A stretch of DNA of 63,520 nucleotides, the filler included, from Hausera hauseri (Eukaryota): assembly GCA_046269625.1 (NCBI GenBank). It is 12 parts of 12 records of this genome, joined end to end, with 100 filler letters (N's around TTAATTAATTAA, not from the genome) between each part and the next. Parts side by side here need not be neighbours in the genome. Positions count along the whole stretch, not along the records: positions 1 to 4,907 come from JBJURY010395034.1; positions 5,008 to 9,675 come from JBJURY010482909.1; 10 more parts are not named here. One strand, given 5' to 3'. Each line of letters begins with the position of its first letter. Position 1 is the stretch's first letter. Below are positions 1 to 59,948 of the stretch, piece by piece. The notes under the pieces were generated by a model. It worked only from the letters and a program-made list of their open reading frames with translations. It was not told the DNA's origin and did not search any database. The position numbers were made by a program, and so were the translations under genes.

Positions 1-3000
1 ACCGCCCAAGGATTAATTAAGGCGCTAAAAACGGATCCAAAACAGAAACGAACAAAACGGAACTTAGAGAAGTTAATGGTAGAAATAGAGAATGCAGTAA
101 TCTATCACCTCAAAAATAAACCTATAAACGAATTGGATGAAAACGATTTTTTAATACTAGTCATAGAACCAGTAGACATTCCTCTCATAATAGAAATGTG
201 CAAGATCGCGTTCAACGCGCCCAAAGAATATACGGAAATAGAAATTCGATTAGTCTCGCAAGATAAAAGGCGCTCCGAAATCTACAAATGTAGGAATAAA
301 ATAACGTATGTAGTAAACCAAGAAGTACAAAACATAACAAAAACATGCATTTTAGAACTGGACGAATACAAGAAGGAAGTTAACTACGTTAAAGAAGTAA
401 TGGACTATATTAAGGGTCCAGACGATATATTGAACAACGTCTACGAACGATTAGAAAACGTAATAAACGCCAAACCAATGATAGATAGCCAACTCAAAGA
501 ATGGATTAAACTGCTAGACAGATTAATGGGTCTAACGAAATATCGTCTGAGGAAGTATTCAGAATCTGAACCGATATTAAAACAACAGCTAAAGGAAATA
601 CTCCGTAACCTGGATGCTTAAAAAAGAGAGGCCAACCTTCGAGTTGAATTTGACGCATTATTGAGACTAAGATTTATGAGTAAAGATCAAGAAATAAAAC
701 TTGGAGAAGAATTATATACTATGATCGAAGAAATGGAATTATCGACAAAACAGGAAAAGATCTCTTGCTTATCGATGAGACTAAAAGGTGTCCGCCGAGA
801 AGGCGTACGACATTTGGCAACAAGCCCCATAGATGAAATATCCGTATCTGATCTATCGACGTTGGATATCTCCCCAAATCATCGGATTGCGTTAGAAGAA
901 GTACTAAAATATCTACATCGCCCTTTTTAATGGGCATCAGATACCGACCAGAATGGTCACGCCGAATTAATAGAAATAACCAAAGATTATAGCCTCACAC
1001 CAGACAAAGTTAGATTCATAAAGAGACTGATTGAAGCAATAGACCAAGATTCGAAGACTCTAAAAGAAATGCGAAAAATAATATCACTACTATCGACAAT
1101 GGCAGAAATAAATGACGATGAGACGGGACAATTGACAACTCAAATTAAAGATATAGAAGAATTGCGAATTCGCACAAAGCAAAGAGCTACGAAGCTAGAT
1201 AAATTAGGCAAAGAATTGGAGACTTATAAAATTAAATATAAGATTACACAGTTAGAGTTAACGAATATAAGAGAATTGGTACAAAGATGGTTAACGGATG
1301 TAACGACCGAGTTAACAGATTACGAAAGAAAAGGGTTGTTCCCTACATATGAACTAGGGCCGACATTAAAAACAATACAACTTGCGTGTGGAAATGGAGT
1401 AGAGTTTCGAACTAATTTAATGAAAGAAGTACAGTTGAGATTAAACGAGGTATGCTAATATGTACAAAAAGCGTTTACGATATTGTTAGATTATGGACTT
1501 CCAGATATCACATACGACTCAGGATGAGATGCTTATTTGGAAGATGTGTACAACCAAAACCCAAAAACACCCATCCAACTTTAACAAATGAATATTCTTC
1601 CAACAGACCGACGATTTGGTACGGAGATGCTCTTAGATCCCGCAAGGGCTGAGAGAAAATTAATTGAGCAGATTAACGTCGATATGATGGACAGCAAACT
1701 GAGACAACTGATCCTTACAGTAACTAAACTATCGAGCGAAAATACCGTTTATAGCTCAGTACCCAGACTATTGATAAAGAAATATGCCAATTTCTTAAAA
1801 GTTAAACCCGAAACGGCGATTAAGGTAAAAATATCAGCTGAATGGATGGAATAGAGAAATTGAATGTACAACGATAACATCGGTTAGAGAGGTAAAACAA
1901 TAGATAGTACAAAACAGTGGGAAAGACGAAGTAAATTACCGATTATATTTCCGAGGTAAGATACCGGACGAACCTGAGCTACTAATAGATGTTGCAATGA
2001 TTCCAGAGGAATCAAATCTAATAGTGGCTATAATTACCAACGAACAGACAAAAGACGAGGCTGTAAGGAAAGTGAGAGATGAAGATTGCGTAGGACGTAT
2101 TATAGGAATCCGAGACCCTGTCATGCATTTTTGACTACCTCCAAAGTGAGGAAGATAAGGACCAATACGATAAGAATCTAGTACCGATTAGTGAAGCAAT
2201 ACCAACTGCGCTGAAGTAGAAACCATCAGTTGGAAGGCCGAGGAAAATAAGTGATGATATTGACCAAAATGCAGCCCTAATACGAGAACTAAGATAACTA
2301 TCCATGCCCGCGATTAACTCCGCTAACGAAAAATCAAACGATTTGCTGAGTAACATTATAAAAATAGTAAACTATTCGGGACTAAGAAACGAGATGTTAG
2401 ATGAAAAAGAAAAGGCAATATACGAAGCAGCAAGGATAATGAGAATATTTCGGTTCAAAATGAACAAAAGCAACTTACCTGATGAAGTTTTAATAGAGAA
2501 AATTATTGTAAAAAATACTGAGGAAGAATTAAGGAAAGTAATATTGTACTTGGCAATCAAAACAAATCCTCTAAAGGAAAATGAATTCAGTAGAACCATA
2601 GGATTGATCAGAAACGCTGATAGGAAGATACCTAGAGAGATAAATAGGTCCAAGCTATTTGACGATGAAGATGGAATCAGGCCGATAACTAGAATTGAAG
2701 ATGTGGTAAGAAATTTAATACCAACTAACTCAGTGCGAGACAGTGAATCAAGTTGGATGATTAAACTAATAACACTTATGATGTTAATAATACAACTCTA
2801 TGCAATCACGGTATATGACTGTGATAAGTTTAAAATAGGTTAAAAATATTCCTTGATGAATATGGAGTTGTGTGAGGATGCCAGACCCCACAAACTAGTA
2901 ACCATTGAAAAAAAGTATTTCTTGTATCAGAAACGCGAACTAATCGCAATAGACGGAATAGAGTGCATGTTACGATGATCGCGAAGCATTTTCCACTGCG

Positions 3001-4907
3001 GAAATATGCACGGGTATTCGTCAATTGTAAAACCAACTATACCGCTAATACCTATGGATTTAGATCGACAACAATGCAAACAAGCCAAAGAAACCGGAAG
3101 ATTGAGATGGGATGGGATGGAATTAGAAGCCCAACCAGGAAAGATAATTCGAGTGTATAAAGTAACAATTGGGAAATTAGACATGCACACCGGATACTGT
3201 AAAAGAGGTGAATACGATACAGGAAAGGGAAGAGAAGCAGGAATAGTAGTGGTCGATTTCTATAAGACAGGAATGAGAAACCAAAAGGTGATGTTTTATA
3301 GTGTTACAAAAACATATACAGAAAATCAGAAGTGTCATATCCAAGATGGTGCCTTTACTTTCCGGAATTCGATAGTTATTTGGACTCTACCATCTATTGA
3401 TGATTGTAACTTTATTAAAACAAAAGAGATAAACTTTAATGAAACCACGGGAAAAAGATATGTTGACACAACCGACAATAATGCCATGTCAAGGAAGGAT
3501 GTTGCTAAACAATCTACACCCACGATATTGATCTCCGAAAATCACGGATTAAAGTTCATTAAGAAGCAAATGCTTTCCCGATGTAATGTAGTAATGTACG
3601 CCACCAATTACAAAGCATTCTTTGTAGAAAAAGCTGCAATAACTACCTTTGCCCTGGAAACACAAGATGTAAGAATAGAAGATTATTTAAAGAATAGAAA
3701 TGACTACTTCTATTATAAAGGGCAATTTGACTAGCAAAGTTATATCATAAGATGATCTAAAATGACTGTAAATTGGATATGGAAATCATGGGGACCGAAC
3801 TAGCTTTAATATACGAAAATCCAGAACTAGCATCGCCAGTAATTCCAATGAAAGAAGGAATTTTTGGAAGAGTTACCGGAAAAGTCCTGTTGACATACGA
3901 ATGCGAAAAACGAGGTGTACCCCTAAATGTAGAAGAGAAACGTTGTATTCAAGAATTGCCAGTCATATATCAAAACGTACCCCGATTGGCGATGCCACTT
4001 ATAACAGTTTTGCTGGAAAACTCGACACAGCCAACACTTTTGAAATAATGTAAAGCAAGTTTAGGCGAACCTATGTTTAAGAGAAGTGAGCCAGATTGGG
4101 TAAGTCTGCCAAATGGAGGAATAATAGCTACGCCTGGCAAATTAACTGGAACAAATTTACTAAAGGGCATAACAGACGATAAGTTCGCTGACACTGCAAG
4201 TAAAGGGATATACAGACCAAAGGAAATTGAAGCTTTCAGACAATTCCTAGCCTTCCTTCGACAGCGCACACATGAGCTAAATAGAGCCATGTCAACGGTG
4301 ATGGATGACATTCGCTCTCAAGCAAAATGGGAATCCCTACTTGGCGTCAATCATTACCAAAGAGTTACTACAGAAATACTATATAAAATTTGTAAAAGAC
4401 TTTTAATTTTCGGACAAGCTGCATCAAGATTTTTAGCCATTTATTTCATGCTACAAATCGTAAAGGCTATAATTCAATCTATCATAAATGGCTATGAAAT
4501 ATTTTCTCTAACCGGATTTTCATGCAAAATTTTGACCGCGATCATAACTCCGTTCGGAAAATTTTTGAAGGCTTACGAAGAAAACAAATGAAAAAGCGAC
4601 GTGGGGAGACACGTTGGTTATTATAATCGGAAACGAAAGAGAAAACCTATATTTTTTACAGGACAGAGAAATACAAAATTTCGAAGAAACGATTCGGTTG
4701 ATGAGCCTAAGGGAGGAGACGCGGTCTCCAAGATAAGCAATCGTAAGACGCTTAGGCCGCCTTTGCCAATGCTGGCCCCTTCGGCACCGCAATACGAAGA
4801 CAGTGAAAAGAGATCTATTAACTCCTATAGTTCGGAAATCTATTTAAGCCTTTCAGTTACGAAGATCCCTATGAAGGGACAAAACAATACGGCGTGTTAC
4901 GAAAAAT
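1..4907 (+). pseudogene. Decayed viral/retroelement polyprotein, copy 1: helical/SAM-like region, ubiquitin-like domain, AT-hook, signal peptide, chuvirus-like glycoprotein, tail
   Basis: ORFs 76-621, 661-930, 1069-1458 and 1588-1854 share one frame; frameshifts fall near 1850, 2135 and 3728. The region is colinear and homologous with 5008-9675 throughout. Confidence 0.85.
2754..4860 (+). pseudogene. Chuvirus-like (Jingchuvirales/Monjiviricetes-type) fusion glycoprotein, copy 1
   Basis: Hydrophobic WMIKLITLMMLIIQLYA precedes ITVYDC. Motifs FHCGNMHGYSSIV..CKQAKETG, GKVLLTYEC..RCIQELPV and SKGIYRPKEIEAFRQFL, plus the membrane-proximal FGQAASRFLAIYFMLQIVKAII..INGY, follow the order I recall for chuvirus G and its endogenous copies. 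Confidence 0.8.
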
Positions 4908-5007
4908 NNNNNNNNNNNNNNNNNNNNNNNNNNNNNNNNNNNNNNNNNNNNTTAATTAATTAANNNNNNNNNNNNNNNNNNNNNNNNNNNNNNNNNNNNN
5001 NNNNNNN
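4908..5007. other. Artificial contig-joining spacer (44N + TTAATTAATTAA + 44N); also at 9676-9775, 19710-19809, 24021-24120, 28733-28832, 33126-33225, 37480-37579, 42222-42321, 48447-48546, 54448-54547, 58714-58813
   Basis: The same 100-bp block occurs 11 times. TTAATTAATTAA puts stops in all six frames, and sequence content changes abruptly across most spacers. Confidence 0.98.
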
Positions 5008-8000
5008 AGAAAACCCAAAATTAAAGAGAACGGCTTATAGTCTAGAGCGTATGATGGATGAAATCAGCCATGCAATGATTCACCGGCTTAGAGAAAAACC
5101 GGTTAGCGATCGAATTAATGTCGATTTAGAAATATTGGGTATAGACCCAGTAGATATTCCTCCCTTGATGGAGATGATAAAAATCGCATTTACGGTATCT
5201 AGACACTATACAAACCTAGAAAATCGAATCAAAATAGACAATGAAACACGACCACAGAATTATAGCTTGAGAAATCGAATTATGTTCCCAAAGGCGACTC
5301 AATACGTAGTAAAGGCTTGTATTGTAGAATTGGACAAGTATAAGGATTAGTTTAATTATGTCGGCCGGATTATAAATTTTCTAAGAGGGCCGGACGATGA
5401 GTTAAAAGATGCATATAAGATGTTAGATAAGGCTATAATGGCAAAACCAATTATCGCAGATCAATTGTCGTAGTGGTCCGAATTAGTAACGCGACTAAGC
5501 AAATTGGCAGAAGACCGCAAAACAGAATTTCCGCAAAGCGAGCCAATGGTAAAGAAGCAACTGGAAGAAAGTGCACATGATTTAGAAATAAACATTCATA
5601 CTCAAATTGAAGCGTTGTGGCGGCTAAAATTGATGAAAAAGGAACAAGAAGCATCGATATTGTAGATTTAGAAACTGATCGAAGAGATGAACTTTGCGGA
5701 AATGCGGAATATGATTTACGATGTAAACTAAAGGTTAAGGGTTGTTCGATTAGAAGGAGTCCAACACTTAACGCATAAACATATCGACGAGATCTCTGTC
5801 CAAGATATTGAAACTTTAGACATCTGTCTGGGACATAGAGATACGTTAACGGATGAAATAAAATTTTTGCATAAACCACAATAATGGATGGTCGGATCAG
5901 ATCAGGATTTCCATACTAAGTTGACAAAAATAAGAGACGACCCACATTTTAGTTTTCAGGAATACAAGTTCGCGAAGAAATTGTAGGATGCAATGGACCC
6001 TGACTCAAAAGTTATAAATGAGATGTATGAGCTAGCCTATCTATTGGTAGAAATGGTGGAGATCAACGATGACAGAATGAGGCAATTGATGCCCAAGATA
6101 CAAAAAGTAGAAGAAACATGTATCAAAACGAAACAAAGAGCGACAATGTTAGACGAAATAACAAAAGAGCTCGAAGTCTATCGAAAAAAATATGCTTTTA
6201 CTGAGTCAGAGATTAAAAACAAACAAGAATTTGTAAAAAGATGGCAAAGAAATGTAATTATAGAATTAATGGATTACCACCAAAAAGGATTCGTCGATCC
6301 TAATGAATTAGGCGAGCTATTGAAATTGATCCAGTATGTCTATGGAAACGGCATAAGTTTCAGAACTACGCAGATGAAATGAATGCAACCAAGATTAAAG
6401 GAAATTAGAGAAAATGTACAGAGAGCAAAGACGGATTTGATAGACCCCGGATCCCCAGAGACCGTAAATGAACCAGAATGGGATGCATACTTTGACGCAA
6501 TACTTGCCGAAAAGCCGGTGACTCCAGTACAACTAAACGAGATAGAAACATATTCGCAGGACAGGAGATTCAATGTAGAGATGCTCCTGGATTCAGCGCT
6601 AACTGAAAAAGATTTAATCGAACTAATTAACGTCAATATTATCGAACATAATTTAAGACGACGTATTCCGACGTTAACTAAATTATCTAGCGAGAATACG
6701 ATTTGTAGCACTGTGCCGAAACTTTTGCTAAGGAAGTAAGCTAAAATCTTGAGGGCTAAACATGAAGTAACGAGAAAAGTAATGGTATCATCCTAATTGG
6801 TGGACGAAAAAGAATGCTAATTAACTACACATTCCTATGTGAGAGACGTGAGAGAATGGCTAGTAAACAACGGCGGAACAAACGCGTTAAACTACAGATT
6901 TTACTTTAGAGGTAGAATACTCAATGACATAGAACAACTAATAGATGTTGGAATTATTCCCGACGAAACGAATCGGATAGTGACAGTAATAGCTAATGAA
7001 AAGACAAAATAAAAAGCTACACGTAAAGCCAGAACGGAGCAATGCGTAGGACAAACTATGAGAGTTCGAAATGCTGCAATGTATTTTGAGTACTTACAAA
7101 CGGATGAAGACAAGGAACAATACGACATAAATTTAGAGACATTGAGTGAAACGACCACTAAGAGACAAAGGCCGAAACGTCCAGTTGGTAGGCCTAAAAA
7201 AACGCCAGAAAAAGTAAACTATAATGGAGAATTGATTAGAGAATTGAGGCAGATGTCGATTCCGACTCTCAGTACGGATAATGAAGAATTAAGCAAGTTA
7301 ATGAAGAATTTAGTACGAATCGTAAATTATTCCAGTCTTCGAGGTGACGTATTAGACGATAAAGAAAAGATAATATTCAATGCAGCTAAAATGATGCGAA
7401 GTTCACGTTTTAGGCTATCGAAAAGTAACTTGACCGATGAATTGATAATCAAAAAGATTATGGTAGAGAACGCCAATGAGGAATTGAGGAAAGTATTATT
7501 ATATTTAGCTATCACGATAAACTCTAACTGAGAGAATGAAATTAATAGGGCTATAAGCTTAGCACGAAAGGCAGCAAGGGGAATGCCTTGCGAAGTAAAT
7601 TGGTCAAGGCTGTTTGACAAGGAACACGATAAACGAGATAGTAATAAATTCGACGATATATTACGCAATTTAACGACGACGGATGTCAGCCATCGGTAAA
7701 ATGAGTCAAATTGGTTAATCAGCCTACTCACCTTAATGATGCTAATAAAACACATAAGCGCAGTTACCGTCTATTATTGCAATAAGTTTAAATTAGGACA
7801 GAGATATTCTCTAATGGATTTGGAAGTATGCGAAGATGGCAGATCTCTCAAGTTGGAAACAAGAGCGAAAAATTACTTCCTGTACCAACAACAAGAAGTG
7901 ATATCGTTAGATGGAATGGAGTGCATGTTAAGACGATCTCGAAGTATTTTTCACTGTGGGCTAGTACATGGACATTCCTCTATAATCAAGCCAACAACTC

Positions 8001-9675
8001 CGCTAATTCCCATGAACTTAGAACGCCAGAACTTCAAACAAGCCAAGGAAACTGAATGAGTACAATGGGACAGTATGCAATTAGAAATGCAACCAGGAAA
8101 GATAATTAGGGCATACAAGGTAGTGGCCGGAAGATTAAATATGCATAGCAGACATTGTTACGGTGCAGAATACGATACCGGAAAAGGATTACAATCGAAT
8201 GTGGTAGTCGTAGATTTTTACGAATCAGAGATGCGGTCACAAAAAGTAATGTTCCATAGTGTCACCAAGTTATACACCGACAATCAAAAATGCCGCTTAC
8301 AAGAAGGAACCTGCGCTTTTAGATGTTATGTTATAATATGGGAACCTCCGTCTGGAAGAAGCCGTAATTTTATTAAAATTAAAGAGTTAAAGTTTAATGA
8401 AACTACCGGAAAACGATATGTGGATAAATTTGAGACTAATTTAAGGACGCGCGAAGACGTATCGGAACATCCTATCCCCACCATATTGATTTCGGATCAG
8501 CATGGACTGAAATTTATAAAAAGGAAATGATGTCCCTTTGTGATGTAATAATATGTTCGCCACAAACTATGAAGCGTTTTTCGTAGCCGAAACGGAAATA
8601 AACGCAAAAACCTACAAATTAGAAACGCAGGATGTCCGAATTGAAGATTACCTGAAAAACAGAGACGACTACTTCTATTACAAAGAGCAAGTTGGAATAA
8701 TGGAACTATATCACAAAATTATAATGAATGACTGCAAATTAGATACTGAAAATATGAGGACTAAATTGGCTTTCATATATGCCAACCCAGAGTTAGCTTC
8801 TCCCATAATTCCTATGAGAGAGAGAATTTTCGGTTGAGTTACGGGCGACGTATTGTTAACTAACGAGTGTGAAAAAAGAGATGTACCCACCAATGTGGAA
8901 AAAAACGCTGCATTCGGGAACTTCCTGTTATTTATCAGAATACTCCGAGATTAGTTACACCGTTGACGAGAGTGTTGTTGGATAACGCGACACAACCAAT
9001 CATTCTCAAGTATTGTAAAGCAAGCTTAGGAGAACCCATGTTTAGACGAAGTGAGACAGACTGGGTTAGTTTGACTAATGGAGGTATTACTGCCGCTCCA
9101 AGTAAATTAACAGAGACAAATTTTGCGAAAGGAATTACAGACGATAAATTTCAAGACACCTCCTCGAAGGGCATATACAGGCCGAAGGAGATCGAAGCTT
9201 TCAGACAATTTCTCGCTTTTCCGCGACAGCGGACACATGAATTAAACTGAGTCGTGGCCTCTGTAGTAGAAGGTACCCAATTTCAAGCTAAATGGGGATC
9301 TTTACTCGGCGTAAACCACTATCAACGAGTAACAACCGAAATACTTTACAAAATGTGGGGAAGATTTTTGATATTCGGATAAACCGCATCCGGATTCTTA
9401 GAGACACATTTTCTGATACAGATGATAAAAGCAGTAATCCAAGCAGTAATAAATGGCTATGAGATATTTACATTAACTGTATTTTCATGTAGAATATGGA
9501 CTGCAATTATAACGCCCTTTGGAAAATTTTTAAAATCATACGAAGAAAATAAATGGAAATCGGACGTATAACGCCATGTTGGATATTATCATCGTAAATG
9601 AAAAAGAAAGCCTACATTCTTGTACAAGCGGAAACTCATGAAACGCAGTACGCGAAGAAATAATTGCAGTCCATA
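5008..9675 (+). pseudogene. Decayed viral/retroelement polyprotein, copy 2 (divergent paralog of 1-4907)
   Basis: ORFs at 5051, 5993, 6383, 7058, 7736 and 8075 lie in one frame, separated by in-frame stops. Translations align with copy 1 (e.g. LETQDVRIEDYLKNR, KGIYRPKEIEAFRQFLAF). Confidence 0.85.
7712..9675 (+). pseudogene. Chuvirus-like fusion glycoprotein, copy 2
   Basis: WLISLLTLMMLIKHISA-VTVYYC, IFHCGLVHGHSSII, ELPVIYQN, KGIYRPKEIEAFRQFLAFPRQR and MWGRFLIFG; multiple stops and frameshifts. Confidence 0.8.
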
Positions 9676-9775: not shown

Positions 9776-12700
9776 CACGTACCGAATGAAATATGGTATA
9801 ACGTGAAAATCACTTCACATCACGTGACCAATCATAGGTTATAACGTGGCAAGTCACTTGACATCACGTGACCAATTATATGATATAACGTGCAAATCAC
9901 TTGACATCACGTGATCAATCATAAGACACAACGTGACAAATCACTTGACTTTACGTGACCAATCACATGATATAACGTGACAAATCACTTGACATCACGT
10001 GACTAATCATATGATATAACGCGAAAAATTACTTGACATAACGTCCCGAATCATATTTCATAACGTTACAAATCACTTGATATCACTTGAACAATCATAT
10101 GATATAACGTGACAAATCACTTGACGTCACGTGGCCAATCATATGACATAACGTGACAAATCATTTGACATCACGTGACCAATTATATTATATAACGTGA
10201 CAAATCACTTGACATCGCGTAACTAATCATATAATACAACGTGACAATTATTTGACATAACGGCCCCAATCATGTGGTATAACGAAACAAATAATTTGTC
10301 ATGACGTGAACACTCATATGACATAACGTGACAAATCACTTGACATCACGTGACCAATCATATGACATAACTTGACAAATGACTTGACATCACGTGAACA
10401 ATCATATGATCTAACGTGACAGATCACTTGACATTACGTGACCAATCATATGATATAACGTGACAAATCATTTGATATCACGGGACCAATCATATGGTAT
10501 AACGTGACAAATCACTTCATTTCACGTAACCAATCATATGGTATAACGTGACTAATTACTTGACATCACGTGACCAATCATATGATATAACGTTACAAAT
10601 CATTTGATATCACGTGACTGATCATATGATATAACTTGAAAAATTATTTGACATCACGTGCCCAATCATATGGTATAACGTGACAATTCACTTGACATCA
10701 CGTGACCAATTATATGACATAACGTGACAAATCACTTGATATCACGCGACGAAACATATGACATGACGTGACAAATTATTTGATATAACGTTACAATCAT
10801 ATGTTATAACGTGACAAATCACTTGACATCACGTGACCAATCATATGGTGTAACGTGACAAATCACTTGACATCACGTGACCAATCATATGACATAACGG
10901 GACAAATCAATTGACATCACGTGACTAATCATATGAAATAACGTGAGAAGTTACTGAACATCACGTACATAATCAAAAGACATAACGGGACAAATCACTT
11001 GATATCACTTCACCAATCATATGGTATAACTTGACACATCTCTAGACTTCACGTACCGAATGAAATATGGTATAACGTGAAAATCACTTCACATCACGTG
11101 ACCAATCATAGGTTATAACGTGGCAAATCACTTGACATCACGTGATCAATCATAAGACACAACGTGACAAATCACTTGACTTTTCGTGACCAATCACATG
11201 ATATAACGTGACAAATCACTTGACATCACGTGACTAATCATATGATATAACGTGAAAAATTACTTGTCGTCACGTCCCCAATCATATGTTATAACGAGAC
11301 AAATCACTTGATATCACGTTAACAATCATAAGACATAACGGGACAAATCACTTGACATCACGTGACTAATCATATGAAATAACGTGAAAAGTTACTGTAT
11401 GTCACGCCCCGAATCAAAAGACATAACGGGACAAATCACTTGATATCACGTCACCAATCATATGGTATAATGTGACACATCACTTGACTTCACGTACCGA
11501 ATCATATGGTATAAGGTGACAAATCATTTGACGTCACGTGACCAATCATAGGTTATAACGTGGCAAATCACTTGACATCACGTGATCAGTCATATGATAT
11601 AACGTGACAAATCACTTGATATCATATGACTAATCATATGACATAACGTGAAAAATTACTTGTCGTCACGTCCCCAATCATATGGTATAAGGTGACAAAT
11701 CACTTGACTTCACGTAACCAATAATATGGTATAACGTGACTAAACACTTGACATCACGTGACCAATCGTATGATATAATGTGGCAAATCACTTGACATCA
11801 CGTGACTAATCATATGACATAACGTAAAAAATTACTTGACATGCCGTCCCCAATCATATGGTATAACGTGAAAAATCACTTGACATCACGTCACCAATCA
11901 TATGACATAAGGTTACAATTCACTTGACATCACGTGAACGATAATAAGACATAACGGGACAAATCTCTTGATATCACGTCACCAATCATATGGTATAACG
12001 TGACAAAACACTTGACATCACGTGACCAATTATATGACATAACGTGACAAATCACTTGATATCACGCGACCAATCATATGACATGACGTGACAAATTACT
12101 TGGTATAACGTTACCAATCATATATTGTAACGTGAAAAATCACTTGACATCACGTGACCAATCATATAATGTAACGTGACAAATCATTTGACGTCACGTG
12201 ACCAATCATATGACACAACCGGACAAATAACTTGATATCACGCGACCAATCATATGATATGACGTGACAAATTACTTGATATAACGTCACCAATCATATG
12301 GCATAACGTGACAAATCACTTGACATCACGTGACAAATCATATTATATAACGGGACAAATCACTTGATATCACGTCACCAATCATACGTTATAAAGTGAC
12401 AAATCATTTGACATCACGTGACTAATTATATGATATAACGTGACAAATCACTTGACATCACGTCACCAATCTTACTTTATAATGTGACAAATCATTTGAC
12501 TTAACGTCCCCAAACATATGGTATAAAGCGAAAAGTCAATTGTTATGACGTGACCAATCATATGATATAATGTGACAAATCACTAGATTTCACATCACTA
12601 ATCATATGGTATAACGTGACAAATCACTTGACATCACGTGACCAATCATATGACATAACGTGACAAATCACTTCATATGACGTGACCAATCACAAGATAT

Positions 12701-15700
12701 AACGGGACAAATCTCTTGATATCACATCACCAATCATATGGTATAACGTGACAAATCACTTTACATCACGTGACCAATCATATGATATAACGTGACATAT
12801 CACTTGATATCACGTTACTAATCATATGAAATAACGTAAAAAATTATTTGACATCACGTCACCAATCATATGGTATAACGTGACAAATCACTTGACATCA
12901 GTTAACCAATCATATGATATAACGTCACAAATTACTTGACATCACGTGACTAATCATATGCTATAACGTGAAAAATTACTTGACATCACGTCGCAAATCA
13001 TATGGTATAACGTGACATATCACTACACATCACGTGACCAAACATGTGATATAACGTTACAAATCACTTGATATCACGTGATTTTTATATGATATGAAGT
13101 GAAAAATTAATAGACATCACCTTCCCAATCATATTGTATAACGTGACAAATCAGTTGATATCACGTCACCAATCGTATTGTATAACGTGACAAATCGCTT
13201 GACATCACGTGACCAATCATATGGAATAACGTGACAAATCACTTGGTATCACTTGAACAATGATAAGACATAACGGGACAAATCAATTGATATCTCGTGA
13301 TCAATCATAAGACATAACGGGCCAAATCGCTTGATATCACGTCACCAATCATACGCTATAATATGACAAATCATTTGACTTAACGTCCCCAATCATATGG
13401 AATAATGTGACGAGTCACTTGACATCACGTGACAAATCATGTGACATAAGATTACAAATCACTTGACATTACGTGACCAATCATATGATATAACGTGACA
13501 AATTAGTTGATATCACGTGACCAATCATAAGATATAAGGGGACAAATCAATTGGTATCATGTAACCAATCATGTGACATAAGATGGCAAATCACTTGACA
13601 TCACGTGACCAATCATGTGATATAACGTGACAAATAAGTTGATATCACGTGACCAATCATAAGATATAAGGGTACAAATCACTTGGTATCACGTCACCAA
13701 TTATACGGTATAACGTCACAAATCACTTGATATCTCTTGACCAATCATATGACATAAAGTGACAAATCACTTGATATCACGTGTCCATTCATATGATATA
13801 ACGTTACACATCACTTGACATCACGTGACTAATCATACGAAATAAAGTGAAAATTTATTTGTCATCACGTAATCAATCATATGTTATAACGTGACTAATC
13901 ACTTGACATCACGTGACTACTCATAAGATATAACGGGACAAATCACTTAATATCACGTCACCAATCATACGCTATAACGTGACAAATCACATGACGCAAC
14001 GTTCCCAATCATATGGAATAACGTCACAAGTCACTTGACATCACGTGACAAATCATATAATATAACGTGACAAATCACTTGACATCACGTGACTAATCAT
14101 ATGATATAACATGAAAAATGATTTCACATCACCTCCTCAATCATATGGTATATGGTGACAAATCACTTGACATCACGTGACTAATCATATGATGTAACAT
14201 GAAAAATGACTTCACATCACGTCCTCAATCATATGCTATAAGGTGACAAATCACTTGATATCACGTGACCAATCATATGATATAACGTGACAAATAAGTT
14301 GATATCACGTGACCAATCACAAGATATAACGGGACAAATCACTTAATATCACGTCATTAATTATATAATATAAAGTGACAAGTCACTTGACATCTCGTAA
14401 CCAATCATATGACATAAAGTGACAAATCACTTGATATCACGCGACGAATCATATGACTTGACGTGACAAATTACTTGATATAACGTCACCAATCATATAA
14501 TATAAAGTGGCAAATCACTTGACATCACGTGACCAATCAAATGATATAACGTGACAAATCACTTGACATCACGTCACCAATCATATGACATAACGTGACA
14601 AATAACTTCATATCACGTGACCAATGATAAGATATAACGGAACAAATCACTTGATATCATGTCACCAATCATATGTAATAACGTGACAAATCAATCGACA
14701 TCACGAGACCAATCATGAGATATAAGGGGACAAATCACTTCATATCACATGACCATTCAAAAGATATAACGGCACAAATCACTTGATATCACGTCACCAA
14801 TAATATGGTATAACGGTACAAATCACATGACATCACGTGACCAATCATATGGTATAAAGTGAAAAATCACTTGATATCACGTGACCAATCATATGATATA
14901 AAGTGACAAATCACTTGGCATTACGTGACCAATCATATGATATAACGTGACAAATCACTTGACATCACGTTACTAATCATATGAAATAACGTAAAAAATT
15001 ATTTGACATCACGTCATCAATCGTATGGTATAACGTGACAAATCACTTGGTAACACGGGCACAATGATAAGACATAAGGGGACAAATCAAGTGATATTAC
15101 GTGATCAACCGTAAGACATAACGGGACAAATCACTTGATATTACGTCACCAATCATACGTTATAACGTGACAAATCACTTGACTTAACGTGCCCAATTAT
15201 ATGGAATAACGTGACAAGTCACTTCACATCACGTGACGAATCATGTGACATAAGATGACAAATCAATTGACATCACGTGACGAATCATATGGCATAATGT
15301 GACAAATAAATTGATATCGCGTGACCATTCATAATATTTAACGGGACAAATCACTTGATATCACGTCACCAATTATATGTTATAACGTGACAAATCACTT
15401 GATATCATGTCACCAATTATATGTTTTAACGTGACAAATCACTTGATATCATGTCACCAATCATATGTTATAACGTGACAAATCACTTGATATCATGTCA
15501 CCAATCATATGTTATAACGTGACAAATCACTTGACATCAGGAGACCAATCATAAGATATAACTGGACAAATCACTTCATATCACGTGACCAATCAAAAGA
15601 TATAACCAGACAAATCACTTAATATCACGTCACCAATCATATGTTATAACGTGACAAATCACTTGGTATCATGTCATCAATCATATGTTATAACGTGACA

Positions 15701-18700
15701 AATCACTTGATATAATGTCACCAATCATATGTTATAACGTGACAAATCACTTGACATCACGAGACCAATCATAAGATATAACTGGACAAATCACTTCATA
15801 TCACGTGACCAATCAAAAATATAACGGAACAAATCACTTGATATCACGTGATTATTCATAGGAAATAACGTGAAAATTTAATTGACATCACGTAACCAAT
15901 CATATGGTATAAGGTGACTAATCACCTGACATCACGTAACTAATCATAAGACATAACGGGACAAATCACTTGATATCACGTCACCAATGGTATGATATAA
16001 AGTGACAAATCACTTGGCATCACGTGACTAATCATATGAAATAACGTGAAAAATTATTTGATATCACGTCACCAATCATATGGTATAACGTGACAAATCA
16101 CTTGACATCAGTTAACCAATCATATGGTATAACGGCACAAATTACTTGACATCACGTGACTAATCACATGAAATAACGTAAAAAATTATTTAACATCACG
16201 TCACCAATCATATGGTATAACGTGACAAATCACTTGACATCAGTTAACCAATCATATTATATAACGGCACAAATTACTTGACATCACGTGACTAATCATA
16301 TGATATAACGTGAAAAATTACTTGACATCACGTCTTAAATTATATAGTATAACGTGACATATCATTTGATATCAAGTGATCAATCATATGACTCAACGTG
16401 ACAAATCACTTGATATCACGTGACCAATCATAAGACATAACGGGTCAAATCACTTTATAGCACGTCACCAATCATACGGTATAACGTGACAAATCACTTG
16501 AATTCACGTCACCAATCATATGATATAACGTGACAAATCACTTGATATCACGTGACCAATCATATTACATAACGTGAAAAATAAGTTGATATCACGTGAC
16601 CAATCATAATATATAACGGGATAAATCACTTTCTATCACGTCACCAATCATATGGTATAGCGTGAGAAATCATTTGACTTCACGTCACGAATCATATGAT
16701 ATAATGTGACAAATCACTTGATATCACGCGACCAATCATATGATATGACGTGACAAATTACTTGATATCACGTGACCAATAATATGACATGACGTGACAA
16801 ATTACTTGATATCACGTCATTAATCATATGGTATAACTTGACAAATCACTAATCATCACGTGACCAATATATGACGTAACGTGACAAATCACTTGACATC
16901 ACCTGACCAATCATATGACATAACGTGAAAAATCACTTTACATCACGTGACCAATCATAAGCATAACGGGACAAATCACTTTATATCACGTCACCAATCA
17001 CGTGGTATAGCGTTACAAATCATTTGATTTCACGTCACCAATCATATGGTATAACGTGACAAATCACTTGACATCACGTGACCAATCATAAGCATAACGG
17101 GACAAATAACTTCATATCACGTCACCAATCATATGGTATAAAGTGACAAATCACTTATCATCACGTGACCAATATAGTACGTAACGTGACAAATCAATTG
17201 ACATCACCTGACCAATCATATGACATAAAGTGACGAATCACTTCATATCACGTGACCAATGATAAGATATAACGGGTCAAATCACTTTATATCATATCAC
17301 CGATCATATGTTATAACGTGACAAATCACTTGACATCACGTGACCAATCATATGTCATAACGTGATAAATCACTATATATCACGTGACCAATAATAAGAT
17401 ATAACGCGACATATCACTTGACATTACGTCACCAATCATATGGTATAACGTGACAAATCACTTGAATTCACGTCACCAATCATAGGGTATAACGTGACAA
17501 ATCATTTGGCATCACGTGATCAATCATATGATATAACGTGACAAATCACTTGACATCACGTGACTAATCATATGATATAAGTTGCAAAATTTCTTTACGT
17601 CACGTCCCCAATCATATGATATAACGTGACAAATCTCTTGACATCACGTTACCAGACATATGATATAAGGCGAAAAATTACTTGATCTCAGGTGACCAAC
17701 AATATGACATAACATGACAAATCACTTGATATCACGAGAGCAGTCATAAGATATAACGGAACAAATCACTTGATATCACGTCACAAATCATATGGTATAA
17801 CGTTAAAAATCACTTGATATCACGTGACACATCACATGACATAACGTGACAAATCACTTGACATCATTTGACCAATCATAAGACATAATGTGACAAATCA
17901 CTTGATATCACGCGAGCAACCATAAGATATAACGGAACAAATCACTTGATATCACGTCCCAAATCATACGGTATAACGTGAAAAATCACTTGATATCAGG
18001 TGACCAATCACAAGACATAACGTGACAAATCTCTTGATATCACGTGACTAATCATAAGACATAACGGGACAAATCACTTGATATCACGTGACCAATAATA
18101 TGACATGACGTTAAAAATTGCTTGATATCACGTCACCAATCATATGGTATAACTTGACAAATCACTAATCATCACGTGACCAATATATGACGTAACGTGA
18201 CAAATCAATTGACATCACCGGACCAATCATGTGACATAACGTGAAAAATCACTTTATATCACGTGAACAATGATAACACATAACGAAACAAATGACTTGA
18301 TATCACGTCACCAATCATATGTTATAACGTGACAAATCACTTGACATCACATTACCAATCATATGACATAACGTGACAAATCACTTGATATCACGTGACC
18401 AATCATATGATATGACGTGACAAATCACTTCATATCACGTGATCAATCATATGATATAACGTGAAAAATTACTTTGCATCACGTGACTAATCATATAATG
18501 TAAAGCGAAAAATTACTTGACATCACGTCACCAATCATATGGTATAACCTGACAAATTACTTGACATCACGTGACCAATCATATGATATAACGTGACAAA
18601 TCACTTGATATCACGTGACCAATCATAAGATATAACGGGACAAATCACTTGATATCACGTCACCAATCATATGGTATAACGCAACAAATCATTTGACTTC

Positions 18701-19709
18701 ACGTCACCAATCATATGGTATAACGTGACAAATCACTTGATATCACGTCACAAATCATATGGTATAACATGAAAAATCACTTGATATAAGGTGACCAATC
18801 ACAAGACATAAAGTGAAAAATCTTCTGATATCACGTGAACATTCATAAGACATAACAGGACAGATCACTTGCTATCACGTAACCAATAATATGGTATAAC
18901 TTGACAAATGACTAATCATCACGTGACAAATATATGACGTAACGTGACAAATCATTTGACATCACCGGACCAATCATGTGACATAACGTGACAAATCACT
19001 TAATATCACGTGAACAATGATAAGATATAACGGAACAAATGACTTGATATCACGTCACAAATCATATGTTATAACGTGAAAATCACTTGACATCACGTGA
19101 CCAATCATATGACATAAGGTGACAAATCACTTGATATCACGTGACCAATCATATGACGTAATGTGACAAAACACTTGACATCAGGAGACGAATCAAAGAA
19201 CATAACGGGAAAAATCACTTACTATCATACCACCAATTATATGGTTTATTGTGACAAATCACTTGACATCAAGTGGCCAATCATATGGTATAACGTGACA
19301 AATATCTTGACATCATGTTACCAGACATATAGTATAAGACGAAAAATTACTTGATCTCAGGTGACCAATAATATGATATAAAGTGACAAATCACTTGATA
19401 TCACGCGAGCAATCATAATATTCAACGGTAAAAATCAATTAATATCACGTCACAAATCATATGTTATAACGTGAAAAATCACTTGGCATCACTTGACAAA
19501 TCATATGAAATAACGTGAAAAATTATTTGATATCACGTCCCCAATCATATGGTATAACTTGACAAATCACTTGATATCACGCGACCAATCATATGATATA
19601 ACGTCACAAATTACTTGACATCACGTGACTAATCATATGATATAACGTGAAAAATTACTTGACATCACGTCCCAAATCATATGGCATAACGTGACATATC
19701 ACTACTCAT
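9776..19709. repeat. 44-bp tandem satellite (~225 units), a dimer of related 22-bp halves: TCACGTGACCAATCATATGATA + TAACGTGACAAATCACTTGACA
   Basis: Uninterrupted tandem repeat filling the whole contig, read directly from the sequence. Confidence 0.98.
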
Positions 19710-19809: not shown

Positions 19810-22800
19810 CGCGATACTGGAGCTCGTACATTCGCAACTTGCTCAGGTCCAATACCACTTGTCCGATGTAGCTTGGCCGGTCCAGTACGACTTCTTCTTT
19901 GTTTAGAAGCACGCAACCAATCCATCGGCAATGTACATTGACCGCCTGAACTGAGCCTTGCTAGTGTACGTAACCAGTCGTTTTTCGTTCTTGCACAGGC
20001 GCACACTGAGCCACTTCTTCAGATTTTCCACTGTTTTCCCGAACATTGAATTGTTTTTGAGCTTGAAAATAATCCTTTCCGAACTTTGTAAAAGCTGCGG
20101 CTGGTTTTTCGGAATTTCCATCAATGTGCGCCTTGAATATCGGCGCCTGATTGAAGCGGATTGCACGATGCAGCTGTGAGACGCGTACACCGAACTGCAT
20201 GTAAAACTGCAGTAAACGCCAATGAACCGCGTAATGTGATTTGGATTCATGTGTCATGAGCAGCTTCTTTACTTTTGTTGAGCCTTCGCGCGGACATTGG
20301 CTAATTGGTGCGACCGGCAGTTCATCCAGAAAGTCATGCAGCTCATCTGGTACCACGAAATCGACCTCCATCAGGTATCCGATTGAGCTGTTTTCTGCTT
20401 TTGTTGTGTCTGGCGCCCTCAACAGATTTTTCACTATAGTGTCCAGGTCCTGTTTGTCGACTATCCATTAGAATGAACAGTACGGCAAGGGTTGTGAAAG
20501 CGCCCAGCCATACAGGTCATTAATATCGATGTACAACATTGACGTTGTATCATCATCATCATCATCGTCGTCACTGGTCACGTGATGTTTGTTGACAAAT
20601 GTCATGCCGCCACGAATACCAACATCAAGTAGTCGGTACATTTCCGGGTCTTGCAACAGCTCAATTTCCCTGTCCAGCAACATTACTGCCAATGCTCAAC
20701 TAATCCCCGGTATGGAGTAAAAGTTTAGCGGCTCCAGCCTATTTTCCACCAAAGCCTTAGCACGAAATTTCTGAAACACAGGTTAATAAGTACACGTCCA
20801 GTTCCAAGTACTGGTGCATGTACTCTAACATGTTTCTGCAGCCGAGCTCTGTCCACGCTTCCTGTGCTGTGTGATACTCGTCCTATGTGATTCCGGCCCA
20901 CTGTGGCGGCACTTCATCTATTGTCTGAAGACGCTCGTACGACACAGCAAAGACATACGGGAATATGCCTTTGCTGCGTACAATATGCTTGGGGAACTGC
21001 GTCAGTGTTAGCAGCACATCCGGCAAGGAATTTACGAGATTTGCTAGAGATTCATTGAGGAATTGCAATGAGTTAAGAAATCGTACCTGAAACCGTTTTT
21101 TCTGCGTGCCGATAAGGACAGGTACTTCTCCATCGTTGTTGGGATTATGGATAGCTCCTATTGTGGAAATCCGTTGATGGCTCATTTCAGAATATGGTAA
21201 CAGTCGTAACCCCTGAAATTATGAAATATCACCGTCAGGTATGGCCGCAACCGTCTTGCCAAATTGCTTGAATTGCATGTTGCTCCAAAGTATCGACCAT
21301 TGAAATGATCGTTATCCGGTATGAGCCATTCCTGTGCATCGAACGGCAATATTTTGTGGCACAGGTAACATTCGTCAGTGGCAGAGAAAAGGAGTGTTTC
21401 ATATTCGTCTTCCCAGACCGAAGATTTAATGCTATTATTCCAATACTACGGCGCGATTTCCGTTTCCACTGTTGTATCCAACTGATGCAGGAAATCGCGG
21501 ACACAGTTCCTTCCATGAAAAACGTAGTATTGTGGTTGTCCGTCGGCTTTAATTGGCACAACCAGCATTCCGACGGCGATTAGGACATGTTTTTGGTCGT
21601 AGATGTTGTGTCGTGGTAAAATTGCTTCGATATCGGCATATACCACATATGCCGTACTGTCGATATTTGACCAGTCACTTAATCTCAGTTCCTTTTGGAC
21701 TGGCATGACATACATTGTTGTTGTTCCTGTTGCATTTTTCCTGCACAGCGCTACATGCTTTCCCCATGTCGCTTCTGACCTAAAGCCATGTAGACATATG
21801 GGACACAATTTGCAACTTATACCTTTTTGGACAAACTGATCATGGTCCATGTTTAGTAGTCTATCCAAATTTGTTACCGCCATATAGTGAAAGTTTTTTG
21901 CATTCTCCAACAGCAGCAAGTTTACTGCGCGTCCATTGGGTTCCGACTGTGGTAGATTATGTCTGCATGGGGAATTTTGTATATTTCTTCATCTGTCGGT
22001 ATCCTATGATTGTGTTGTACGGAACACGTTGATTGCCAATGTCAGATTACGCCGTTCAAAAGCCGGAATGGTTTTGAGTTTCATCGGTATCCAACATTCA
22101 TCATAGTGCAAATTCTGAGAAATACTTACTGTACTGCTTTGGACAATTTGCATGATGTCTAAACACTTGATCTTATTTCAATATGGCCAGAATGCTGTAA
22201 ATAAAGCAGCCACCTCCAGAGACTGCTTCATGGATGCAGGTGTCGGTATAAATAAACGTCCGGACATGTAAATAATGCCACTCGTCTTGGTTAGAATAAA
22301 GCCGAGAGTGACAATCTTTGCAATTCGCCAACCACTGCCCTTTTCGGTGTAGTTGGCGATTTTTTCGTCAAGATTTTCGCCTACATCGGCAATAAAATCC
22401 TCAGAGTATGGTACGGCTAGATGTGACAGGTACCATTGTTTCCTGTCGCCCTGCAAATTTTCAAATTCTGCAAGTACATAATATTGCGCTTTGCAGTGGT
22501 GTTGTTGGAATTTGGCCACCTCTGATTCCAACAGGTTACGCATATTAGCGGGTACATCCTTCAATTGCGTTGCTGTTTTCGCCGACATGTCCATCTTTAT
22601 GTCCACGTACGATCTGTTCAGGTCGCACTTGACAGTAATGGGCGATTCACGTTCCTGCTGCTGCTGCTGCTGTTTCTGACTTTTGTTGTTTTGAAAGTAT
22701 TCATCAAGGCTTGCTGATGTTTGACGTTTCCTGCTGCTATTGTGTCATGCTGCGTCCATTAATATTTCCTTTTCGGACTTTTGAAACTGGTTCAAGTGGT

Positions 22801-23089
22801 CCTTGTGACTGTTGTAGATTTGTTCCTAGTTGGTTTTATCAACTATGGAACATCCGGGACAAACGTAGGCCCGTTTGCCTTGCACCATTGCGGTGCCATT
22901 GTACTGCTCCATTACACTATGGAAACTATCACCGTCATGAACTGTACTACTACTACAGTATCGCGGGTATGTGGGGCAATGCACAACCATCATCTTCTTA
23001 GACCGAGTAAACAATCCGATGTGATGCTTTTGCATCTCATAAAAATCGGGGTACGGACAGTGAGTTGGAACACTACACGTTGGACACAC
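19810..23089 (-). mobile_element. Decayed Polinton/Maverick/adintovirus-type protein-primed family B DNA polymerase with an endonuclease VII-like insert
   Basis: Minus-strand motifs in order: CPICLHGF..H..C, ExoI YVVYADIE, CYLC..DNDHFNGRYFGATCNSSNL, ExoII VIFHNFRGYD, KGIFPY, YLELDV, IRGGMTFVNK, motif A YIDINDLYGWALSQPLP, motif B FKLKNNSMFGKT. Many frameshifts; cut by the contig end. Confidence 0.9.
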
Positions 23090-23313
23090 ATGCCAATTTT
23101 GTCATATTTGGATATCTCTTGATGGCACTGATCCGCCTCATGTATGCGAAAGACGCAGTACACCGGATATTGTGAACATTTCTAAATTTAAACAAATTAA
23201 AGTTAATGTTAACTTTAAATTGAAAACATTAAATACAATTATATAATAAATTGATATAAACTAACTTATTTCTTTTATGCAGGTATAAACATATCAGCCA
23301 TATTACAACTTAT

Positions 23314-23583
23314 ATGGAAGAGTACATTGAGAGTGAAATTCGGAAATTGACGTATGAAATAATGACTGGACACGTGTTTGACATTCAGTATCTATGTAAG
23401 CTGACAGAAACCAGGATAATGAGCAGACGAGAGTATATTGAATTAATAGTCCGATCACTCTTCATGAAACGAATCGTAGATGAGTGGAAACGAAAGCGGC
23501 AACGACGTATTAATTTTCTCCTTGGAATTGTATTTTCTGATTCGCTTTGTATTGTAATAAAAAAGTTTACTGACCGTATTTAA
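23314..23583 (+). CDS. Small hypothetical protein (89 aa) divergent from pPolB, probably part of the same element
   Basis: Intact ATG-to-TAA ORF after an AT-rich spacer; no family recognised. Confidence 0.35.
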   Translation: MEEYIESEIRKLTYEIMTGHVFDIQYLCKLTETRIMSRREYIELIVRSLFMKRIVDEWKRKRQRRINFLLGIVFSDSLCIVIKKFTDRI

Positions 23584-24120
23584 TCACGTGTATTATTTTG
23601 CTGTTTGTTTTTGTGAATCAATATAATTTATTTGTTACATATCAATATAAATACTTGTGCTTCTTTACGGTATGACAATAAGACATGTACCATTTAACAG
23701 AATTCATTCGTTTATATCACTGGTTCGACGGTCTTTAGAGTCACCTTTACAATCTTGATCGACCTTTACATGATGCACAATACTGTTTGCCCGAAGAGAT
23801 ACTCCGGTGTTCTGAGGAAAAATGGAGGGCACGAGAACCTTATCTACGACACATGAAGCAGGCTGTTGGTGACATGGACACGATATTCGGCCAGATTTTT
23901 CGCACTTAACAGAAATTGGCGTTGGATGACGATCCACGCCACGTACGGTTTGTGGAAGATTTTGTCAAAGGTGATTCCAACATTCCAACGTGGCAGTCAG
24001 CAGATCGGATTTGTTTCAAGNNNNNNNNNNNNNNNNNNNNNNNNNNNNNNNNNNNNNNNNNNNNTTAATTAATTAANNNNNNNNNNNNNNNNNNNNNNNN
24101 NNNNNNNNNNNNNNNNNNNN

Positions 24121-25005
24121 AAAACATCACACTTTCTCGTCACATCATGTGACCGACCGATTCGACAACCCCGGAGGAAGCTGGACCCTGTCAAGAGAGC
24201 AGCCGCGGAAGCCGAATTCCGACACTTCGAAGAAACAGGCATTATACGCCGCTCCACATCGCCATGGGCATCACCACTGCACATGGTTCCAAAAAAGGAC
24301 GGATCATACCGGCCTTGTGGTGACAATAGAATGTGGAATAACGTCACCATCCACGATTCATACCCAACAGCGTTGGTAACGGACATATTGCATCGCCTAC
24401 ATGGTGCAGCAATATTCAACACAGTCGATCTGGAAATGGCATACCACCAGATCCCAGTGGCTACCGAAGACATTACAAAAACGGCTGTAATAACGCCTTT
24501 TGGTTTGTTCTAGTATCTACGCATGCCTTTCGGCTTACGGAATGCAAGTCAAGCATTCCAACGCCACAAAGACCAAGTCCTCATCGACACGCATTATGCA
24601 ATCTCACATATAGATGACATATTGATTGCATTACCCGATGAAACGACTCACAAAACACATCTCGAACATGTGTTTCATAGGTTGAATAAAAACAACCTAC
24701 AGTTGAACATAGACAAATGTTCATTTTTTAAAACAGGAGCCGTATTTCTCGGACTTCGATTAACACCACATGGTTACAGTCCACTTCCTGAGCGACTAGA
24801 AATTATCAAACAAATACCGAAGCCATACATAGTGACTGGACTTCGCCGCTTCCTTAGCACGATTAATTTATGCCATCGCTACATTCCGAATTGCTTGGAA
24901 ATCCTCTCACCTATATCTGCTGTAAGCCAAGGACCCTAGAAATCCCTGGTAAACTGGACAGATGAGGCTGAACAGGCATTTTCCAATGCAAAAATGAGCA
25001 ATATT
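24121..25005 (+). mobile_element. Ty3/Gypsy reverse transcriptase fragment (decayed)
   Basis: SPWASPLHMVPKKDGSYRPCGD, AYHQIPV, MPFGLRNASQAFQR, SHIDDILI, LRRFL; internal stop at 24511-24513. Confidence 0.93.
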
Positions 25006-25599
25006 TAAACAAACTTTATATAGCCAAACATAATAACGAAATTTAATATATTTTGCAGTTCCTGAGGGCCGAAAGGAAAAATTTAAATTTACAAAACAGT
25101 AATATCACAAAAAATGTTGAAAAAAAATTAAACCTTTAAGTCAAACCAAATCAGTAAAAAATTTCCAATGCCAATAATAAAATTTCTCAATGCCAAATCT
25201 CGAACAAAAGTTCTCAAAATTTCAAATCACACATTTGGTCAAAATAAAATATATCAAAGACAAATTAAAAATCACGGATTCGCAAAACATCAAAAATTTC
25301 TCAAGATTCCTACACGAAACAACATAAAAAATGAATCAAGAAGCAAATAGGGGATTGCAAGTGCTGGGGCAATCAGCACTTGTAGCCAACAAAAAAAATC
25401 AATCACAAAAAATAAAATCTGTGGATTTAAATTCATTTGTTTAAATCCACAGTTTAAAAGCAGAGAGAATCATTTCAAAAAATATATACAGAGTAAGAAA
25501 ACAGAACAACGACTTAAAAAAGGGAAAACATGCCAGAAGCACTGAAAACACTTGGGAAGGGTCAGAAGTCGGCAATCAAGAAAGCAAGACACAAAGGCC

Positions 25600-26454
25600 A
25601 TCCTAGGCGATGCAGCCGTTTAACCAAACGCCACCCTTGGAGAAAAGAGTACCGTACCGATTCCGGGGTATTGCATTCCCAAGATACTCCGACCAGTACA
25701 CGCCGAAGCGGAAAACAACACCTTCAGCTGCGTCGCCTCACCGGAACAAGGTCGATCAGAAAAGCGGCAACACACAGCCCGGTGGAATACCGTCCCACGC
25801 TGCAGACGACATCGCAACACCAAAAGGCGAGCCCCGGACCGGTCTTACTCGGACTTTCTGACGGTACGGAATCTGCTATAACGAAGCGGCTTCGTACGAC
25901 ACTTGACCAGGTTGGGACGGAATAACCCCTATTCCTTACCCGGTGGAACGCTCCATCGGTTTTATGAGGACGGAGAAAATCGACGTCTTTTCGACTCATC
26001 GTTTTTTCTGCCGGTCTTCCCGAGACTGATGGCGGCCGCCGACCGCCTCTACGAATCGCTGGCTCCATTGGAGAGCCAGTTGATTCCTGACCGTCTAACC
26101 GCCAACAAACCGCAGGCTAGGACAGTGAGCTCCAGCCCAGACGAAGTTCCCGTACCGCGCCGTCGACGCAGGTTAGAGCCGACAAGACCTGAACAAACAT
26201 CAACCGATTCAAGCTCGGACGAAGCTCTGACCGGTGTACGCCGAGTTCTCCGAAATGGCCCGGCATTATCTTCCACGGACGATTCGTACGCCTCGATTAA
26301 CTCGACCAACAATGATTGTGATAACAATAAACGTTGTGCCCATTACCCCGTTTTTTCTCTTCATTGTCTCCTGTCATTTTTAGTTTATTGTTTTGTCGCT
26401 ATTGCGTGGTGGTCCAGAGGTAAGGCCTGCTTTAAGGCACCGACCTCTAAATAA
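25600..26454 (+). CDS. Unknown disrupted ORF convergent with the downstream Gypsy pol
   Basis: GC-richer frame containing the 183-aa ORF 25903-26454, with an A-rich leader upstream and AATAAA at ~26326. Confidence 0.3.
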
Positions 26455-35789: not shown

Positions 35790-35799
35790 CTAGGTTATA

Positions 35800-59942: not shown

Positions 59943-59948
59943 AAATAT

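Follow-up and report, generated by a model that had tools for sequence, protein, structure and literature searches.

A chuvirus-type fusion glycoprotein in frame with a long leader in a multicopy repeat family of Hausera hauseri, a probable fragment of an envelope-bearing retrotransposon polyprotein

The DNA analysed here, a window of 63,520 nucleotides (nt) from Hausera hauseri (assembly GCA_046269625.1), is a series of 12 contigs with an artificial linker (N44-TTAATTAATTAA-N44) between them. Its first two contigs, 1-4907 and 5008-9675, hold two divergent copies (copy 1 and copy 2) of a coding region in which a glycoprotein (G), identified by profile matches as a Monjiviricetes/chuvirus-type fusion protein, follows in frame on a long upstream region, the leader. 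The two copies belong to a dispersed, divergent multicopy repeat family and do not represent a single viral insertion. We consider it probable (roughly 60%) that they are the middle part, accessory domains plus Env, of the polyprotein of an envelope-bearing long terminal repeat (LTR) retrotransposon, either Burro-like or of the GAG-ENV-POL Ty3/gypsy type, with Gag and Pol located beyond the contig ends.

The glycoprotein, the leader and their common frame

The initial annotation had called a chuvirus-like fusion glycoprotein in both contigs, and the profile search agrees with it. PF24664, which has a curated (gathering) cut-off of 27 bits, matched all four G-containing queries of the seven submitted (45, 28.7, 64.2 and 36 bits) and reached 97.3 and 128.7 bits on the whole frames, so that both copies score above the cut-off. 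No sequence match for G was found in the PDB. In copy 2 the match begins at residue 890, within the one segment of the frame that is clearly hydrophobic, and as this corresponds to profile position 6, the signal region of the glycoprotein family is internal here. In each copy, as judged by eye, the first conserved residues of G follow an alanine.

The position of the signal segment inside a frame that continues from upstream was also found as claimed. In copy 1 an open reading frame (ORF) at 2304-2843 (stop to stop, 2298-2843) runs from the leader through the signal-like segment into G, and copy 2 can be read in a single frame between 5051 and 8530, in which 15 internal stops occur. Copy 1 is not a single frame but shifts at ~1850, ~2130 and ~3730. 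With these stops and frameshifts, both copies are dead. At its 5' contig end neither copy closes its frame, and homology between the two extends upstream of the methionine at 5051. Because openness and homology extend up to the contig ends, this methionine is not shown to be a start, and the "leader" is an inner part of some longer protein rather than a defined protein of 900 residues. Of the ~900-residue leader described initially, at least ~900 in-frame upstream codons under purifying selection can be retained; the size is a minimum, and in copy 1 the leader is broken by frameshifts. At the other end, the copy 1 frame is still open 105 codons past the G anchor, up to the contig end.

The remaining 10 contigs of the window contain no relative of the two copies. 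The copies are 67.4% identical over 3,068 nt and colinear at the protein level (tblastx blocks) from 34 in copy 1 and 5012 in copy 2 to ~4654 and ~9619, with amino acid identities of 43-50% in the leader and 62-85% in G. In a codon comparison between the copies over seven colinear segments in leader and G, the proportions of nonsynonymous (pN) and synonymous (pS) differences were 0.28-0.34 vs 0.56-0.78 in the leader and 0.09-0.21 vs 0.76-0.88 in G, the synonymous sites being near saturation. As pN is well below pS in both, leader and G diverged under purifying selection in these frames.

To judge the interrupting stops, both the second copy and two public sequencing runs that contain the copy 2 sequence (X1 and X2) can be used; contigs of the runs were compared with copy 2 only, and the substitution data on copy 2 cover 40 of 1,419 rows. 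No RNA data set was listed as containing the sequence, which counts neither for nor against expression. Thirty aligned codons have a stop in either copy, and 29 of these are open in the other. The one common stop (928 in copy 1, 5882 in copy 2) has a chance probability of 0.14-0.56, depending on the number of stop-prone codons. At its position, a sense codon accounts for 8,618 of 8,927 summed depth in X1 (39 contigs) and for all depth in X2; as most of the family is without this stop, the idea that it marks a genuine boundary of the ORF or a site of readthrough was rejected. The same holds for the copy 2 stop immediately in front of the signal segment, where 911 of 924 depth show a sense codon. 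Among the 12 indels listed none is a majority state, including those in 5008-8530. Since these two stops are mostly sense codons in the public-run contigs and no listed indel is in the majority, the single leader-G frame is the family state, at least of the copy 2 subfamily. The frameshifts in copy 1 are presumably private to this copy.

Contigs matching copy 2 numbered 13,837 in X1 and 999 in X2; they are fragmented, and their number does not equal the copy count. X1 is possibly the run from which the window itself derives. In X1, 529 were at least 99% identical to copy 2, 1,632 were at 95-99%, 4,983 at 90-95% and 6,693 below 90%. Thus, 11,676 lie below 95%, and over the two runs, too, most contigs are less than 95% identical, with differences that are mostly transitions. 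Up to ~70 different contigs cover one copy 2 site, and depth does not drop at the 5' end of copy 2. The once-active lineage proposed in the initial annotation is supported by the excess of pS over pN in the leader together with the thousands of divergent contigs in X1. One X2 contig (organism B) equals copy 2 without any difference over 243 nt (7280-7522), which suggests that the same insertion is present in the organisms of both runs.

The starts of the two contigs lie within ~30 nt of one homologous point, and their ends, too, are close to a common point (1-34 / 5008-5012 and 4654-4907 / 9619-9675). These common points are either assembly breaks at better-conserved flanks or a true boundary. 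A perfect 16-nt inverted repeat (9495-9510 / 9660-9675) terminates at the copy 2 end, where the homology with copy 1 stops; it is possibly an assembly or chimera artefact.

Domains and homologues of the leader

A profile of the leader, searched against 1.84 billion proteins, gave one match, an unnamed protein of 150 residues on a 2.2-kb contig (P0005), which is 40% identical to leader residues 331-479. Word-index searches for homologues found nothing, and scans of viral contigs and metagenome contigs revealed no related loci. Downstream of the matched, coiled-coil-like segment the leader likely contains a ubiquitin-like domain, as suggested by the PF00240 matches in both copies (Table 1) and by PDB matches of this region, of which 10 of 15 are named ubiquitin-like (weak, best E 0.1). 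An AT-hook-like motif and a predicted all-helical domain follow. Four further candidates were not retained: a SAM-like domain seen by eye in copy 2 (~5735-5881), which had no Pfam or PDB support; SCAF11-like_C, matched in copy 1 only (E 0.001-0.003), below the cut-off and absent from copy 2; eL22, with E of at least 0.1; and an isolated, out-of-context match to Rab GDI (E 0.005-0.02).

Structure models of the leader were poor, with mean predicted local distance difference test (pLDDT) values of 37 and 54. For both models Foldseek returned no match at E<=0.001 in PDB or BFVD; at this low confidence the result has no bearing on novelty.

In agreement with the initial view of the leader as non-Pol, motifs of reverse transcriptase (RT), protease (PR), CCHC, integrase (IN) and RNA-dependent RNA polymerase (RdRp) are absent from all 12 frames of both contigs, and the six plus-strand frames gave no Pfam match to RT, protease, zinc knuckle, integrase or RdRp. 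The leader is not identifiable as Gag either: capsid and zinc knuckle had no match in the part that is present, where the frame is open upstream and the N-terminal 580 residues lie outside the folded region. No terminal repeat was found inside the two contigs. The absence of Pol motifs says little, because the leader is 5'-open and the contigs are only 4.7-4.9 kb long.

Nature of the element

Two groups of retrotransposons provide a precedent for this architecture, which the initial annotation had regarded as unrecognised; comparisons with published systems here refer to the parts of the cited accounts that were consulted. Burro, a giant Ty3/gypsy element of planarians, has one ORF of ~4,900-5,100 residues that contains Gag, Smc, MATH, Ubi2/SUMO-like, BCL2, an in-frame Env and PR-RT-RNase H (RH)-IN, and its env region matches mononegaviral fusion proteins (PMC6431247). 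GAG-ENV-POL Ty3/gypsy elements, with gB-type env only, are described from flatworms, bryozoans and nematodes, and chuvirus-like G is placed in the gB-type env class (PMC13524379). In a literature search PMC6431247 was the only relevant paper found for env in frame between gag and pol, and no paper was found on an LTR element combining an extra ORF, an envelope, an AT-hook and a ubiquitin-like domain. Env in frame inside a retrotransposon polyprotein is documented in few lineages only. Sacco et al. 2022 reportedly described a continuous gag-env-pro-pol ORF. What is new here is the orphan leader; the env-in-polyprotein layout is already known, and the class of the element itself is one that we infer.

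As in Burro / GYPSM1, Env lies in frame inside one long ORF, after accessory domains that include a coiled coil (Smc in Burro) and a Ubi/SUMO-like domain (here a likely but sub-threshold ubiquitin-like domain); high copy number is also common to both, and in a related species decayed Burro fragments with stops and frameshifts are described (PMC6431247). Unlike in Burro, the contigs of copies 1 and 2 show no Gag, CCHC, MATH, BIR, ankyrin, PR or RT, and they carry an AT-hook-like motif, which the consulted parts of the Burro account do not report (PMC6431247). With the GAG-ENV-POL elements, called "ancient errantiviruses", the copies share a gB/chuvirus-type env directly after a non-Pol region and the multicopy state, and ENV of these elements may carry an internal N-terminal membrane segment, as is the case here; their defining Gag, POL and LTRs are not seen on the contigs of copies 1 and 2, and the consulted parts of the account make no statement on a common frame of GAG and ENV (PMC13524379). 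The GAG-ENV-POL elements span ~14.5 kb including 3 kb of flank on each side, that is ~8.5 kb of coding sequence (PMC13524379), which, given the usual sizes of Pol and Env, would leave room for a Gag-side region of ~900 residues.

Several observations count against a polyprotein of this kind. On either contig there is no capsid, zinc knuckle, protease, RT, RNase H, integrase or LTR, and no protease motif occurs within the 105 codons after the anchor. The ubiquitin-like assignment is below significance, and the one match of the leader profile among 1.84 billion proteins is no annotated retroelement protein. A BCL2 fold in front of Env, which the Burro layout would predict here, was not confirmed: BAK1 ranked third for the model with pLDDT 37 (Z 6.7, root mean square deviation 5.1, 101 residues aligned), tied with designed helical repeats, and was outside the top 50 for the better model (pLDDT 54). 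Further, Env of Burro, compared by description only, is annotated as gypsy/F-like by HHpred with mononegaviral hits, while G of the copies matches PF24664. Because no defining retroelement gene is seen, we do not assign the copies as members of Burro or the errantiviruses. That they derive from an LTR element of any kind is, however, quite likely.

In an envelope-bearing retrotransposon, general knowledge of viral polyproteins suggests the following steps. One polyprotein would be made, and its upstream part (coiled coil, likely ubiquitin-like domain, AT-hook, helical domain) would remain cytosolic and supply accessory domains on the Gag side. Acting as a signal sequence, the internal hydrophobic segment would thread G into the lumen of the endoplasmic reticulum, and a cut by signal peptidase would free G, the predicted class III fusogen of the particles. 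The C-terminal anchor would bring the chain back into the cytosol; the tail would come next and, if the order is Gag-Env-Pol, protease, RT and integrase as well. Gag-side domains and any downstream Pol would both be cytosolic in this topology, as a Gag-Env-Pol polyprotein needs. Retrotransposition would be the source of the copy number, and the ubiquitin-like domain and AT-hook are putative accessory functions acting on host ubiquitin pathways and DNA. A high-copy family with an orphan accessory region of ~900 residues, probably with these two domains, would extend the env-in-polyprotein layout and offer a case in which a single polyprotein handles cytosolic and membrane parts.

Among the alternatives, all of them unlikely, an LTR element of conventional order fares best. 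Here Gag-Pol would lie upstream, as in a Ty3/gypsy errantivirus or an Anakin-type BEL/Pao element, the env ORF would have, or be fused through, a very long cytosolic N-terminal extension, and the frame would end soon after the G tail. The frame is indeed open upstream, and the post-anchor tail, basic with a PSAP motif and without protease, resembles an ordinary Env tail. Chuvirus-like G is found in BEL/Pao elements (PMC7642597) and adjoins gypsy POL, and some gB-type ENV ectodomains are bounded by two transmembrane segments and not by a signal peptide (PMC13524379). Anakin, too, has a chuvirus-like G that a retroelement multiplied, as is probable for the family described here, and decayed copies occur in both, but the G of Anakin accompanies GAG-PR-RT-RH-INT within LTRs, none of which is present here, and a long in-frame leader is not mentioned in the parts of the account consulted (PMC7642597). 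At the 5' end no match to an integrase C-terminal domain or a chromodomain was obtained, and no description of an extension of at least 900 residues on such env ORFs was found in the sources consulted, as far as they extend.

Less probable is that an unknown RNA virus with a leader-G polyprotein left an endogenised fragment in the genome, or that leader and G form a stand-alone unit without Pol; the copies would then have been multiplied in trans or by the host. In viruses of the Jingchuvirales / Monjiviricetes, which also encode N and L, G is an ORF of its own that bears a signal peptide at its N-terminus. The copies share with these viruses and their endogenous relatives the G sequence family PF24664, and chuvirus-like G is common among endogenous viral elements, often without an intact transposon nearby (PMC10084718). 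The near lack of leader homologues and the start of both contigs at one homologous point, a possible true boundary, would fit such an origin. Unlike in a Jingchuvirales virus or a simple endogenous element, the signal segment lies inside the protein and shares its frame with at least 880 selected codons, and no similarity to N or L occurs on the two contigs. Saturated synonymous divergence and thousands of contigs at 80-95% identity require that several subfamilies replicated in the host over a long time, and homology reaches the contig ends with open frames, without a fall in depth at the 5' end of copy 2.

About as improbable is a family of high-copy enveloped mobile elements that lack a Gag-Pol of their own, or whose replication module belongs to neither the LTR nor the Polinton class, and in which one polyprotein would join an orphan DNA-binding/ubiquitin-like protein and a class III fusogen. 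If the flanks prove to be without Gag-Pol, the family would be a new kind of enveloped element.

Least probable, and rather remote, is that the gene belongs to a large DNA element, of the Polinton/Maverick or another type, that had captured a class III fusogen, the AT-hook and ubiquitin-like region having roles in DNA or chromatin: the AT-hook-like motif is retained in both copies, another contig of the window resembles, by eye, a decayed Polinton-type polymerase (without Pfam match), and nematode Mavericks bear the gB-like, class III-type fusogen MFUS-1, but this is a stand-alone protein of 866 residues with an N-terminal signal peptide, encoded alongside DNA transposon core genes (bioRxiv 10.1101/2022.07.12.499685), whereas pPolB, integrase, ATPase, capsid and terminal inverted repeats are all absent from the two contigs.

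Feature coordinates and other contigs of the window

Table 1. Features of the two leader-glycoprotein copies, in window positions.
Feature	Position	Strand	Remarks
Copy 1 leader, 5'-open at contig end	1..2756	+	three pieces (1-1851, 1853-2131, 2130-2756) split by frameshifts
Copy 2 leader, one frame, 5'-open at contig end, with nonsense codons	5009..7711	+	
Helical, coiled-coil-like leader segment	6041..6487	+	crude heptad scan; sole part with outside homologue (P0005, 40% identity)
Ubiquitin-like domain (likely, sub-threshold), copy 1	1853..2044	+	PF00240 only match, E 0.032
Ubiquitin-like domain (likely, sub-threshold), copy 2	6770..7000	+	PF00240 best match, E 0.07
AT-hook-like GRP motif, copy 1	2223..2243	+	pattern match
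AT-hook-like GRP motif, copy 2	7178..7198	+	pattern match
All-helical domain (~160 residues) just before signal segment	copy 1 2253..2741; copy 2 7208-7696	+	predicted model
Internal hydrophobic signal-like segment, copy 1	2751..2817	+	Kyte-Doolittle 19-residue mean up to 1.9
Internal hydrophobic signal-like segment, copy 2	7712..7768	+	PF24664 match begins here, profile position 6
Monjiviricetes-type fusion glycoprotein, copy 1	2757..4582	+	PF24664; broken by stops and frameshift near 3730
Monjiviricetes-type fusion glycoprotein, copy 2	7718..9544	+	PF24664; broken by stops and frameshifts near 8540, 8900
Post-anchor open frame, copy 1	4592..4906	+	basic, proline-rich tail with PSAP motif; no protease motif
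Artificial linker between contigs	4908..5007	.	copy 1 and copy 2 not adjacent in a genome

Other mobile elements are represented elsewhere in the window. Three contigs (24121-28732, 54548-58713 and 58814-63520) carry LTR-retrotransposon pol fragments with integrase, RNase H and RT, the first two being 64% alike; no link of these contigs to copies 1 and 2 was found. A decayed gypsy-like contig at 42322-48446 has, by eye, an integrase-like end, followed by long ORFs at 43376-45183 and a Gag-like region with a CCHC knuckle (PF00098). The long ORFs contain a membrane-like segment, have no Pfam match and are possibly a different env or an accessory ORF. The polymerase-like region (19810-24020, minus strand) is GC-richer; by eye it resembles a decayed Polinton-type protein-primed polymerase, with no Pfam match at E 0.01. 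At 33226-37479 (plus strand) a decayed coding region with ORFs of 246, 181 and 207 residues, without Pfam match, and a weak RING finger (E 0.001) could be the accessory region of another large element.

The remaining observations concern satellites and genes. Satellite arrays at 9791-19703 and 48714-54447 are built of 44-nt units (~226 copies) and 68-nt units (~74 + 9 copies, the second block inverted), respectively. An intronless RING-finger ORF of 390 residues is located at 30353-31522, and a fragment of an ELO fatty-acid elongase at 38104-38658.

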